A DNA stretch of 64,000 nucleotides from positions 64,001-128,000 of the IMG/VR virus record IMGVR_UViG_2811995030_000001; one strand, given 5' to 3'. The notes under the pieces are model-generated. The model was not told the origin of the DNA. It saw only the letters and a program-made list of their open reading frames with translations, and searched no databases. Source of the DNA: a virus. Taxonomy: Duplodnaviria > Caudoviricetes. Made by a program: the position numbers and the translations under genes. Below, piece after piece: positions 5,378 to 44,983 of this stretch (the first letter of the stretch is position 1; every line of letters begins with the position of its first letter).

Positions 5378-5572
5378 TTACTTATAATCAAATATATCAT
5401 TAGGCGTACACTCCAAGGCTGTACAAATTAAATGTAGTAAATCAAATTTTATGGATTCAGTTTTATTGTCGGCCAACTTACACAAGTTGTGATATTGCAT
5501 ACCTATTTCTTTAGCTAACCAGTAACGAGTTTTACTTTTTTCTTTTAGTAGATCATCAATCATTATTTTCAA
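5378..5572 (-). CDS. Cro/XRE HTH regulator (YozG-like)
   Basis: RYWLAKEIG...ICTALECTPNDIF; paralog at 42660-42863. Confidence 0.85.
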   Translation of the reverse strand: MKIMIDDLLKEKSKTRYWLAKEIGMQYHNLCKLADNKTESIKFDLLHLICTALECTPNDIFDYK

Positions 5573-22465: not shown

Positions 22466-22500
22466 GATTTAGGATAAAAGATAGCTTATATCTAGAATTA

Positions 22501-22631
22501 AATATTTTTCTTGCAATTAGTTTGAAAATATGCGATAACTAAATTAAATAAATTACATAACTGGATTAAATGAATATTTCTCTTGTAAAAAAATTAAAAA
22601 TAAGATATAATCAAATTAAATAAAATACATA
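22501..22631 (+). promoter_or_regulatory. tandem diverged duplication of a promoter/operator upstream of tnpB
   Basis: 22501-22559 vs 22573-22631; TTGCAA-17-GATAAC and TTGTAA-17-TATAAT, each followed by AAATTAAATAAAwTACATA. Confidence 0.7.
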
Positions 22632-22707
22632 TTAAAAATAAATTCCTTTTAGTACAGTATGGAAAGTGTGTATAAAATCAAAATTAGACATTGGGAGGTG
22701 AATATTT

Positions 22708-24153
22708 ATGTCGAATTATATCCTTACACTAAAACTAAGAACTGAAAAGTATCAGGAAGATATATTAAATAAACGTCTAGAGGTTGGAAGGCGTATATAC
22801 AACAGCATACTAGGCGACCTACTTAAACGTTATAATACCCTTAAGCAAAGCAAAGGGTATAGATTAGCTTTAAAAATGCAAAAAGGTAAAGAACGCAATA
22901 AAAAACTTAATGATCTGAATAAAGAATATGGTTTGACTGAATATTTACTTCATACACACATTAAACCGATGCAAAAGAAATTTAAGAAAAACATAGATAG
23001 CTCCACAGCGCAGAAAATTGCTACTAGATGTTTTAGCGCTTTTCAGAAATTGATGCTTCACGAGGCAGACAAATTGAATTTTAAAAAATGTGGAGAGCTA
23101 AACAGTCTAGAGGGAAAATCCAATAAAACAGGAATTAGGTTTAAAAATAACCAATTAGTTTGGAATAAATTAATAATTCCTGTAATTATAAAGAAGAATG
23201 ATATATATGCTCATACTGCATTACAAGATAATATTAAATATTGTCGTGTTGTACGTAAATTAATTGGGGGAAAGTATAAGTTTTATATTCAACTTATACT
23301 AGAAGGAATCCCTCCTAAGAAACATAACAACGAAACTGGTGAAGTTAGGCATGTTAGAAATGAAGGATCAGTTGGAATTGATATTGGCACACAGACGATT
23401 GCTATCTCCTCTCAAAAAGAAGTTAAACTATTAGAGCTTGCGCCAGAAGTGAGTATTATAGAGAAAGAGAAACGTATATTACAGCGTAAGTTGAATAGAC
23501 AACGCAGGGCAAACAATCCTCATAAGTACAATGAAAATGGGCTGATTAAGAGAGGAAATACAGGTAAGTGGATATATAGTAAAAACTATATTAAAACAAA
23601 AAATAAATTAGCTGAGTTACAAAGGAAGATTGCTGCTAAGCGTAAGCAGTCTCATGAGAAATTAGCTAATTACATCCTAACGCTTGGCGATAACATTAAA
23701 GTTGAGCAGATGAACTATCAGGGATTACAGAAGAGAGCAAAAGAAACAACTGTCAATGAGAAGACAGGTCGATTCAATAAAAAGAAAAGGTTTGGGAAGA
23801 GTTTAGAAAATAAAGCACCAGCAATGTTTCTAATAATACTAGATAATAAATTAAAATTTGATAATAAAGAGCTAAGAAAAATTAACACAACCTCATTTAA
23901 AGCAAGTCAATATAATCATTTTACTGATGAGTATGTTAAAAAGAAGTTGTCTGAACGTTGGAATAAATTTGAATGTAGTAAGATTCAGAGAGACTTATAC
24001 AGTGCATATCTGATTATGAACAGTAGATGGAACTTAAAAGAAGCTGATAGAGATTTATGCTTTGATAATTGGAACAGGTTTAAGGAGCTACATGACTTAG
24101 AGATTGAACGATTAAGAAATGAAGATAGAACGATAGCGAGTATGGGAATCTAG
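22708..24153 (+). CDS. tnpB: TnpB-family RNA-guided nuclease (IS200/IS605-IS607 related)
   Basis: RuvC-I VGIDIG, RuvC-II VEQM and RuvC-III QRDLYSA intact; no CxxC Zn finger. Confidence 0.85.
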   Translation: MSNYILTLKLRTEKYQEDILNKRLEVGRRIYNSILGDLLKRYNTLKQSKGYRLALKMQKGKERNKKLNDLNKEYGLTEYLLHTHIKPMQKKFKKNIDSSTAQKIATRCFSAFQKLMLHEADKLNFKKCGELNSLEGKSNKTGIRFKNNQLVWNKLIIPVIIKKNDIYAHTALQDNIKYCRVVRKLIGGKYKFYIQLILEGIPPKKHNNETGEVRHVRNEGSVGIDIGTQTIAISSQKEVKLLELAPEVSIIEKEKRILQRKLNRQRRANNPHKYNENGLIKRGNTGKWIYSKNYIKTKNKLAELQRKIAAKRKQSHEKLANYILTLGDNIKVEQMNYQGLQKRAKETTVNEKTGRFNKKKRFGKSLENKAPAMFLIILDNKLKFDNKELRKINTTSFKASQYNHFTDEYVKKKLSERWNKFECSKIQRDLYSAYLIMNSRWNLKEADRDLCFDNWNRFKELHDLEIERLRNEDRTIASMGI

Positions 24154-24163
24154 GCTATAATAA

Positions 24164-24353
24164 GGTTTTGACACGAGCCTATAGGACGTTAATTTCAACA
24201 TTGGTTGAATTGTCCATGAAAGTCTTATTGAAATGAATGAGTCTTTACATGTTGTAGCTATTCTTGAAATAGTGAGAGTGTAGAGGAAATTCAATAGTAA
24301 ATAAGAACCTCGCAATAATTGTGAGAGTGTCAGATAACTGGGAGGAATAGGTA
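24164..24353 (+). ncRNA. predicted omegaRNA 1 (scaffold to TCAG 24333, guide from 24334)
   Basis: blocks GGTTTTGA..CGAGCCTA.AGGA, TTGTCCATGAAAGTCT and AGAACCT-hairpin-GAGA..TCAG shared with 44470-44642. Confidence 0.75.
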
Positions 24354-42452: not shown

Positions 42453-42626
42453 GTGATTATTATAATTGGATACATAAGATATGTCTATAATTTAACATGG
42501 AGTAATTGGTATTGGAAGGTTTGGCTGGGGTCAGATATTGACTTATTTGATAACTGTAGTTGGAAAGTATATAAGAGCACTCTTACAGAATCTACATCTC
42601 CTAAATCAGGACAATCTAAACAATAA
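42453..42626 (+). CDS. small Trp-rich protein; intact allele paralogous to the remnant after omegaRNA 2 (start uncertain)
   Basis: GYIRYVYNLTWSNWYWKVWLGSDIDLFDNCSWKVYK vs RYVYRLASFNLHYKTWMGSDIGLFDNCSWKAYK. Confidence 0.65.
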   Translation: MIIIIGYIRYVYNLTWSNWYWKVWLGSDIDLFDNCSWKVYKSTLTESTSPKSGQSKQ

Positions 42627-42659
42627 AGAAGGGGAGGTGGGTGCATCAAGGAAAATGGA

Positions 42660-42863
42660 CTACTCTCTTTGATTCCACCCAAGCAATTCGTTAGGTGTAC
42701 ATTCTAATGCTGTACAAATACGTTCCATAATCTCAAATTTAATAGAAGCTGTTTTTCTGTCAGCTAGATTACACAAGTTTGGATACGTAATTCTTACTTC
42801 TTTAGCTAACCAGTAACGTGTTCTATCTTTTTCTTTAAGTAAATCATCGATCATTATTTTCAT
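42660..42863 (-). CDS. Cro/XRE HTH regulator divergent from tnpB
   Basis: close paralog of 5378-5572; GAGGTG RBS. Confidence 0.85.
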   Translation of the reverse strand: MKIMIDDLLKEKDRTRYWLAKEVRITYPNLCNLADRKTASIKFEIMERICTALECTPNELLGWNQRE

Positions 42864-42985
42864 ATTTTATCACCTCTCTATATATTATAAGTAATATACA
42901 AATCTTTTTCAATATATACTGTTGATAATACATACTGTCTACTGTAATATAAGTGTATGGAGATGAATACAAGTGAATCAGATCG

Positions 42986-44458
42986 GTGGTGAGAAGAATG
43001 GGTGAAGTTAAGAAATCAACATTTATTTTACAGTTGCCATTACATACTACAAATTCAGATGTTGCTGCATTAAATAAATATTTTGAACTATCCCGTAAGT
43101 TATATAATGTTTTACTTAATGAATCATTGAAGAGATTAAATCTAATGAGACAGTCCAAACAATATCAATTAATTAAGAAGCTAGATAAGAAAGAGCAAAC
43201 TAAAGCATACAGGAAAGCTAGAGAAGATTTTAGATTTACAAAATATGATTTAATTAAGTTCTCCACTCCCTTAAGAATAAATGAATTTAAACAGGTTGAT
43301 TCTAGCACAGTTCAAAAACTTGCTCAACGCGCCTTTTTATCAGTAGAGAGAATGTTTTATGGGAAGGCTAAGCGAGTTAATTTTAAGTGTAAGGGCGAAA
43401 TGGATTCAGTTGAAGGATCAAGTAATAGACAAGGAATTAAATATCGTGATGGGTATCTACAATGGAACAAACTAAATATCAAGGTGAAGATTAAAGAATG
43501 TGATTATTATGCACATGAGGCATTAACAAATAAGATTAAATATTGTCGTATTGTTAGAAAGTTAATTAGAGGTAAAATTAGATTCTTTATACACTTAGTC
43601 CTAGAAGGAATCCCGCCTAGAAAAATTGATAATAAAACAGGGATGTTTAAAGGTAGACACGGGGAGGGAAAGGTAGGAATTGATATTGGCACACAAACTA
43701 TTGCCATTGTAAGTAAGAATGAGACAAAATTATTAGAATTGGCACCAGAAGTTAACAGCATTCATAAACAAATGAGAGTTATTCAACGCAAGATGAACAG
43801 AAGTAAATGCATGATGAATCCACATAAATTCAACGAAGACGGAACAATTAAAAGGAGAAATGGAGAAAAATGGATATGGAGTAAGAACTACTTAAAATTA
43901 CGTTATCAATTAGCTGAGTTGCAACGTAAACAAGCTGATATTAGAAAACAGTCACACTATCGACTAGCCAATTGGATTATAAGTCTAGGTGACAGATTCT
44001 ATGTCGAACAAATGAACTATAAAGGACTACAGAAAAGAACAAAGGAAACAATAATTAATGAAAAAACAGGTAGATACAATAAGAAGAAACGATTTGGAAA
44101 ATCCTTAGCAAATAAAGCGCCCGCAATGATACTGACGTTGCTAAAGCAGAAGTTAGGGTATTGGGAATTGGAATTAAACAAGATTGATACATTTAATTTT
44201 AAAGCAAGCCAATATAATCACTTTACAGATGACTACACAAAGAAAAGTTTATCAGCTAGATGGAATGAATTTGAATGTGGAAAAATACAGCGTGATCTTT
44301 ATTCTGCTTATTTAATTATGAATAGTAGAGATGATTTAAAAAATACTGATAGAGCATTATGTATAAGTAGTTGGAATAATTTTAAACAGTTACATGATAT
44401 TGAAGTTGAACGATTAAAAAACTGTGGAAATAAATTAATTGGTAGTATGGGTTTATAA
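42986..44458 (+). CDS. tnpB: TnpB-family RNA-guided nuclease
   Basis: VGIDIG, YVEQM and QRDLYSA intact; paralog of 22708-24153. Confidence 0.85.
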   Translation: MVRRMGEVKKSTFILQLPLHTTNSDVAALNKYFELSRKLYNVLLNESLKRLNLMRQSKQYQLIKKLDKKEQTKAYRKAREDFRFTKYDLIKFSTPLRINEFKQVDSSTVQKLAQRAFLSVERMFYGKAKRVNFKCKGEMDSVEGSSNRQGIKYRDGYLQWNKLNIKVKIKECDYYAHEALTNKIKYCRIVRKLIRGKIRFFIHLVLEGIPPRKIDNKTGMFKGRHGEGKVGIDIGTQTIAIVSKNETKLLELAPEVNSIHKQMRVIQRKMNRSKCMMNPHKFNEDGTIKRRNGEKWIWSKNYLKLRYQLAELQRKQADIRKQSHYRLANWIISLGDRFYVEQMNYKGLQKRTKETIINEKTGRYNKKKRFGKSLANKAPAMILTLLKQKLGYWELELNKIDTFNFKASQYNHFTDDYTKKSLSARWNEFECGKIQRDLYSAYLIMNSRDDLKNTDRALCISSWNNFKQLHDIEVERLKNCGNKLIGSMGL

Positions 44459-44469
44459 TTTAAATTAAT

Positions 44470-44662
44470 GGTTTTGAATCGAGCCTACAGGATGCTAATG
44501 GATTCAATGGAGTCCTTGTCCATGAAAGTCTCAGGATACTATCTTCAATAGCTATGATGTGTACCGAAAGGGAGAGCATAGATACGAATTTAGAGAATGA
44601 GAACCTGCCATGTGAGTATGGAGAACGTGTGCAGAGATTCAGAAGGTACGTTTATAGATTAG
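44470..44662 (+). ncRNA. predicted omegaRNA 2 (scaffold to TCAG 44642, guide from 44643)
   Basis: conserved blocks shared with omegaRNA 1. Confidence 0.75.
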
Positions 44663-44778
44663 CGAGTTTCAATTTACACTATAAGACTTGGATGGGATCA
44701 GATATTGGATTGTTCGATAACTGTAGCTGGAAGGCTTATAAGCGCTCATTAGAGGAGGAGAAGCGTCATGAACTATGA
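44643..44778 (+). pseudogene. 5'-truncated allele of the 42453 gene that supplies the guide
   Basis: in-frame homology to 42476 onward begins exactly at the scaffold boundary. Confidence 0.7.
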
Positions 44779-44983
44779 TAACCTCATAATCGGTAAGCGT
44801 TGCGAGGTGTATGCGGATTTTCTTGTTAAGGTAAGAAAAAGAAGAATGACTAAGCAAGGTACTATAAGAGGATTCTACGTAAATGAGCATTGGCATCCAT
44901 ATACATATAGAGCTTTTCATATTGAATTTGATGATGGAACTAAAGATACTTTTAAAGCGCAGGATGTAAAGATTACTGGTTAA
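44768..44983 (+). CDS. hypothetical protein
   Basis: GAGGAGG RBS. Confidence 0.65.
   Translation: MNYDNLIIGKRCEVYADFLVKVRKRRMTKQGTIRGFYVNEHWHPYTYRAFHIEFDDGTKDTFKAQDVKITG

Follow-up and report, generated by a model that had tools for sequence, protein, structure and literature searches.

A tnpB gene between two diverged copies of a small phage gene: a candidate transposase-free, RNA-guided homing cassette

Introduction

Why would a tnpB gene with no transposase at its side lie inside a small phage gene, with a version of that gene's 3' end on either side of it? The locus that raises this question lies in a provirus record of 136,534 bases, which contains numerous small genes as well as a replication module. 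Its host phage is a Bacillus-type prophage, and the closest named relatives of its TnpB are annotated in Priestia megaterium. All positions below are those of the window, the whole stretch of 64,000 nucleotides that was analysed. The original prediction, made from the letters alone, was an RNA-guided form of intronless homing, in which a TnpB2 nuclease takes its guide from a foreign allele of the small gene while a synonymously recoded resident copy resists cutting. Here we ask which parts of this reading hold, and how else the locus might be explained.

Results

Layout of the locus

On the plus strand the locus reads ORF X, an HTH gene in reverse orientation, tnpB, its right end, a headless second end of X (X') and the next phage gene. 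The 5' part of X forms the left flank (42453-42475, plus strand) and ends in TACAT (42471-42475, plus), the predicted TAM, which also encodes conserved Tyr-Ile codons of X. It runs into the resident, or spare, 3' part of X (42476-42626, plus), which is predicted to be resistant and has three mismatches to guide positions 1-12 and five in 1-16. There follow a Cro/C1-type HTH gene (PF13443; 42660-42863, minus), 67% identical to a paralog at 5378-5572, and divergent sigma-70/A-type promoter-like sites (42884-42950) that score 11/12 towards the HTH gene and 9/12 towards tnpB. The IS200/IS605-group tnpB (42998-44458, plus) encodes 486 aa, or 490 aa if started at the GTG at 42986, and its right end, a predicted omegaRNA scaffold of 184 nt (44459-44642, plus), ends in TCAG. 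The predicted guide (44643-44658, plus; about 16 nt, by analogy with ISDra2) is the beginning of X' (44643-44778, plus), an open frame that has no start of its own and contains the ribosome-binding site of the next gene. The start of that gene, which encodes 71 aa (44768-44983, plus), is overlapped by X', and homologues of it occur without an adjoining X in L171 and L174. The stretch 42476-44642 is likely the cassette unit.

Contigs from a second, independent study (run X5) bridge both junctions with 0 differing letters, and an assembly artefact was rejected on this ground. Identical cassette pieces are also present in a third study, while some of the additional sequencing runs may be the source sample itself and are not independent. 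Each flanking gene occurs on eight contigs and TnpB on six. A look-up of RNA data sets carrying the cassette returned none, which does not bear on expression.

Two diverged copies of X

Over 110 nt, positions 42469-42578 match positions 44636-44745 at 70%, and the local alignment of X with X' gives z=16 against 20 shuffles. Joining the left flank to the downstream copy does restore one continuous ORF, of 53 codons. The guide and the resident copy differ, as first described, at positions 4, 7 and 10, all synonymous third positions, and further differences lie at 15, 16 and 20. The interpretation of these differences as recoding fared less well. The copies have 55% amino acid identity, with a pS of 0.89 and a pN of 0.23, and 3/4 seed codons differ as compared to 7/18 conserved codons elsewhere (Fisher p=0.23, or 0.078 for 3/3). 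We rejected purposeful recoding because divergence runs throughout and seed enrichment is non-significant (p=0.08-0.23); what separates the resident copy from the guide is ordinary divergence. A recent local tandem duplication of X was also rejected, because synonymous sites are saturated. Judged by these substitution patterns, the X copies are two alleles diverged under purifying selection.

Family profiles score X' higher than the resident part (66 versus 54 and 73 versus 52 bits). Because it also contains the next gene's ribosome-binding site, X' more likely represents the original end, now displaced, and the 3' part upstream was probably imported. This direction, tentative in view of the mixed allele of a Priestia endophytica protein (below), runs against the original description of the guide as the foreign allele.

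Relatives of X occur in SPbeta-like Bacillus phages as ORFs of 41-63 aa, truncated or frameshifted in some phages. Pfam and PHROG assign X to no family, and NCBIfam and Atlas gave no useful match. Being tiny, and damaged in some phages, X may be dispensable and may need no rescue. The GTG at 42453 is part of a Shine-Dalgarno-like motif, GAGGTG, and translation of X may therefore begin at a non-canonical ATT or ATA a few bases on. Many X alleles have no ATG (e.g. L138-L141, L165) and show GGAGG or GAGGTG and then ATA or ATT, a pattern that suggests use of a non-canonical start in the X family; X is often unannotated in phage records. The HNH endonuclease gene yoqL abuts the X start in phi3T (L002:1812-2504) and in 3/44 other X loci (L142-L144), and from this recurrence X may attract endonucleases.

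Family and integrity of the nuclease

The tnpB product scores 78.8 bits (E 4.6e-22) against the NCBIfam TnpB model NF040570, below the cut-off of 100, and by this under-threshold match it is a divergent TnpB subfamily. Its closest TnpB relatives stand at 65-76%, and in a quick tree of 56/109 proteins, selected by us, it sits in a 14-row clade with an SH-aLRT of 93. Across 119 homologues, this TnpB included, the predicted catalytic residues D229, E337 and D433 never vary, and from motif and position in the structural model we infer that E337 is the canonical RuvC-II Glu. The AlphaFold model (pLDDT 88) has as its best Foldseek matches 8iaz (ISFba1 TnpB, E 9e-16) and 8h1j (TnpB-omegaRNA complex, E 4e-14); a PDB sequence search with the TnpB profile returned no match to solved TnpBs, and no C-terminal four-Cys zinc finger is evident in the protein. 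The nuclease looks intact, with a RuvC D-E-D site, and is predicted to be active. A dead TnpB was rejected because all three predicted catalytic residues are present, and the same retained D229, E337 and D433 separate it from TldR proteins, which have an inactivated RuvC.

The TnpB2 label of the original prediction had to be given up. TnpB2 is defined by a lost canonical RuvC-II Glu and an alternative conserved Glu about 45 residues away (PMC10530073); here E337 is present, and no conserved Glu lies between residues 337 and 433. A Y1 TnpA match lies upstream in 55/115 relatives' loci (Geobacillus virus E3 is among these TnpA-bearing relatives and was the source of the TnpA query), which, together with the apparently canonical Glu, points to an IS605-group TnpB1. 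We also rejected an IS607 label, as the neighbours are the HTH gene and X, with no serine-recombinase TnpA, and the NF038280 score is 24 against a cut-off of 350. Distant homologues (34-37%; L113-L121) are found on viral contigs of 47-284 kb, where the TnpB-like gene is followed by recurring units that contain GTTTTGG and look like a CRISPR-like array.

Scaffold end, guide start and TAM

TCAG ends at 44642 and the guide begins at 44643; relatives have the scaffold in common and diverge immediately past TCAG. A pseudoknot between 44474-44480 and 44636-44642 has 7/7 pairs at this locus, and the terminal hairpin of the scaffold spans 44605-44634. In the covariation test, 62/69 variable cells of the pseudoknot are paired (shuffle mean 45.9; 0/5000 shuffles reach the observed count), a significance that kinship inflates, with 23 distinct loop/end combinations drawn from 80/90 loci. 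This covarying 7-bp pseudoknot fixes the scaffold end, and hence the guide start at 44643, exactly at the start of X', independently of the X alignment; the proposed truncated gene copy directly behind TCAG is confirmed. A right-end omegaRNA with a pseudoknot to the scaffold's 3' end is thus present at the sequence level. The scaffold had no match in Rfam, and alone it folds no better than shuffles (z -0.24). In L013 and L016, an extra ORF-like stretch of ~240 nt lies between the tnpB stop and the omegaRNA scaffold.

Left-flank motifs of multi-copy TnpA-bearing relatives are TTAC, TTAT, TTGAT, ATAC and TACAT. A TACAT left flank is common to the TnpA-bearing relatives L100, L102/L103, L106 and L107, and the sole TAM-labelled rows in this TnpB's 14-row clade of the quick tree are TACAT elements. 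Recognition of cleavage sites falls to four guide bases located at the foot of the end hairpin (PMC3201880), and our pairing rule, whose hairpin-guide pairing order was checked by eye against relatives, yields ACAT for L102, L103, L106 and L107. The flank that relatives share is TACATA, and the exact TACAT boundary leans on this pairing rule. TACAT has a background frequency in the record of 0.0022 per position. The nearest labelled TnpA-bearing relatives and the clade argue that TACAT, the putative TAM first named from the joined reading frame, is probably the TAM. L100 is an apparent hybrid IS, combining a TACAT-type left end with a TTAC-type TnpB and right end.

Missing transposase and left end

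No Y1 TnpA was found in the whole 136.5-kb record, so the observation that the cassette has no transposase extends well beyond its neighbourhood. Upstream of tnpB we found no left-end hairpin, either by motif or by blastn against the left ends of six relatives, which gave only chance-like matches of 11-15 nt. The locus accordingly has neither the Y1 TnpA gene of IS605 nor the left-end subterminal hairpin of IS605 and IS1341 elements. The position expected for the left end and tnpA is occupied by the HTH gene and its divergent promoter-like sites, the latter resembling the region upstream of the HTH paralog at 5378-5572; the module that they form is of a generic phage type. A further promoter-like site (11/12; 42487-42459, minus) extends across the left junction in antisense orientation to the upstream genes, with resident-specific bases in its -35 box; it may be chance.

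Predicted immunity and the search for a target allele

Of 592 TACAT occurrences across the record, none is followed by a better guide match than the resident X site, which has three mismatches in positions 1-12; two such mismatches abolish ISDra2 cleavage (PMC13639567, citing Nakagawa 2023). The record, having no TACAT-adjacent self target, is predicted to be immune, and the idea that the cassette's own allele resists stands as a prediction.

The original prediction also called for a cassette-free allele carrying the TAM and a guide match, and here every DNA search came back empty. The exact TAM-plus-guide pattern had 0 matches in IMG/VR and JGI metagenomes, and a shorter pattern had two, both unrelated to X. 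A blastn search of the region against phages and plasmids gave no cassette-free X allele, an X profile run against 269 and 401 Bacillales genomes gave two matches each, all distant and none an empty allele, and the region's DNA gave no empty allele in 401 and 8 genomes. TACAT is kept in 28/52 X loci, and the X family holds no guide match, with 7-10 mismatches per 16 nt in all 52 loci read. No joint skipping the cassette occurs in the assembled contigs of eight runs (one without aligned contigs), contigs being a form of data that drops rare variants. Because the collections searched may leave out very near genomes, these blank searches are no proof that a target is absent.

One lead exists at the protein level. 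The Priestia endophytica protein P0165 (WP_458594241.1) matches the guide-type (X') core at 18/18 aa, compared to 14/18 for the resident copy, and its tail is resident-like (7/12 aa, versus only 2/10 for X'). By joining an X' core to a resident-like tail, P0165 indicates that both allele types circulate in related prophages, and we treat it as a lead to the target. Searches for its coding DNA in IMG/VR, phages, plasmids and eight related genomes drew a blank.

Parallel loci

The guide flank is duplicated upstream in only 2/79 testable family loci, a count in which some loci are duplicates of each other and which covers loci other than those of the closest TnpBs (65-76%); a check of four more loci was negative too. 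The other positive locus is L084:1146-5335 (Desulfosporosinus metallidurans), where the TnpB right end leads straight into the 3' part of a gene paralogous to the surface-protein-like gene upstream (53/60 nt). This locus keeps a left-end-like hairpin and lies within a tandem paralog array, so it may instead reflect an adjacent deletion in the array.

A second TnpB of the record (22708-24153), 57% identical to the first, likewise lacks both tnpA and a left end. ATAACTGG opens its guide (from 24334), and the same eight bases, preceded by TTAC, occur at its left edge (22553-22564), between two 77%-alike promoter-like repeats. The stretch 22496-24349 has the look of an intergenically placed cassette that supplies a spare promoter; a search for its empty site found none.

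Discussion

Proposed mechanism

The layout of the locus is real, and a mechanism that would account for it is plausible. On balance we lean slightly towards reading it as a transposase-free, RNA-guided homing cassette that carries a resistant spare gene end. An IS605-type element would have inserted at TACAT in codon 8 of X, turning the rest of X into a guide, and its left end and tnpA would then have been replaced, via recombination with a phage module, by another X allele, the HTH gene and divergent promoters. With left end and tnpA lost there could be no TnpA excision, and movement would be possible only by cut-and-recombine. If expressed, TnpB, guided from the displaced X end, would cut TACAT-adjacent cassette-free X alleles of related phages, at 15-21 bp from the TAM, as ISDra2 TnpB does (PMC8612924). 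Donor-templated repair would then bring in tnpB along with the diverged spare 3' end of X, predicted to be cut-resistant, and this conversion would leave the recipient with a whole, resistant X, the keeping of which may be of benefit. A TnpA-independent TnpB drive has been shown in plasmids (10.1101/2025.02.20.638934). Of the intronless-homing idea from which we started, the guide position, the probable TAM, the intact-looking nuclease and the predicted immunity hold up, while the TnpB2 identity, the recoding and the foreign origin of the guide are not supported, and the search for a target allele came back empty.

More tentatively still, and at somewhat less than an even chance, the locus may represent a natural RNA-guided phage 'home-and-rescue' drive, one of a recurring class, assembled from a transposon-freed TnpB, a phage repressor-promoter module, a cut-resistant spare and a displaced end that serves as guide.

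Alternative explanations

The most serious alternative, which we consider unlikely, is that the locus is a passive mosaic relic: an IS605 element broke X, a module swap added an unrelated X allele, the HTH gene and a promoter, and the layout survives only because self-matching versions are lethal, without homing continuing or selection acting to rescue X. Open frames are nevertheless kept in both X copies, and the nuclease, pseudoknot and terminal hairpin are intact, with a promoter-like site serving tnpB. The generic nature of the HTH-promoter module, divergence that is not concentrated in the seed, an empty target allele that searches did not find, and the fact that X adjoins different genes in different phages are all consistent with a relic, as is L084, an ordinary element whose paralog-array setting shows how a comparable duplicate can come about. 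The second TnpB of the record weighs the other way, with its parallel loss of tnpA and left end and its TAM-like motif plus eight guide bases at the left edge.

Interference without homing, in which the prophage TnpB would cut incoming phages that carry guide-type X while flanks are too different for conversion, seems improbable. It leaves unexplained why a whole spare X should stand in frame at the TAM, and a single fixed guide with no known target would be a narrow defence. The genomic setting of X fits this alternative better: X is found among variable accessory genes, and only 1/9 neighbouring window genes has homologues near X in 46 X loci, so that left-side homology for repair may often be missing. 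Anti-invader activity of TnpB is reported for plasmids (10.1101/2025.02.20.638934), and competitor killing by homing endonucleases is reviewed in PMC13565253.

A TldR-like regulatory role, in which the TnpB would occupy DNA such as the partly matched resident site (TACAT with 9/12 seed matches ~0.5 kb upstream of tnpB) but leave it uncut, would accord with a tolerance of TnpB binding for seed mismatches (PMC10055086) but is very improbable, since all three predicted catalytic residues are present and the guide is the element's own flank and not a promoter.

Relation to known systems

Returning to the homing cassette, we compared it to four kinds of known system. IS200/IS605 TnpBs (ISDra2, PMC8612924; Gst TnpB, PMC10055086; the tnpB-only IS1341 group) have in common with it the RuvC D-E-D site and the right-flank guide, and in these systems the TAM is the TnpA insertion motif and homing into the transposon-less allele has been proposed, both of which would apply here as well. 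The cassette differs from them in having no tnpA and no left end, in a left part made of a spare target 3' end and an HTH-promoter module, and in a TnpB of ~486 aa. The plasmid IS605/TnpB drive of Mears et al. (10.1101/2025.02.20.638934) similarly spreads independently of TnpA by cutting element-free replicon copies; it differs in acting in plasmids with a complete IS and no gene repair, and the words 'phage' and 'essential' have 0 occurrences in the text available to us.

In layout the closest parallel comes from fungal mitochondrial mORF hybrids (PMC3630166), where a foreign C-terminal part arrives with an endonuclease gene and the native end is displaced downstream, as in Allomyces macrogynus atp6 and Glomus atp6, atp9, cox2 and nad3. 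The cassette shows the same succession of in-frame C-terminal part, endonuclease and displaced C-terminal part, the displaced copy presumably being the native one. The mORF hybrids, however, have protein-guided LAGLIDADG or GIY-YIG enzymes and occupy essential mitochondrial genes (PMC3630166), whereas the nuclease of the cassette is a TnpB, and the native end that was displaced would here serve as the template of the guide RNA. Intronless homing by T4 Seg and Mob endonucleases (PMC13565253) likewise distinguishes self from non-self in co-infection by substitutions in neighbouring genes; the cassette, by comparison, would be RNA-guided, sits within the gene that it targets and retains a version of the allele to be cut. 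By defining features the cassette is not a member of IS605, IS607, TnpB2 or mORF. We found no report of a TnpB that carries a spare copy of its target gene in the literature searched (titles and abstract openings, with subscription journals thinly covered).

Significance

TnpB homing for whole IS elements and gene-repairing endonuclease inserts in fungal mitochondria are already known, and the significance of the present locus is limited by its target, the tiny ORF X. The locus would also extend the known TnpBs by a divergent one whose TAM is predicted to be TACAT. If the homing mechanism is true, an RNA-guided nuclease could live inside a coding sequence without splicing or a transposase, which would be one answer to why many tnpB genes persist without tnpA, and the cassette would be a natural counterpart of engineered home-and-rescue drives.
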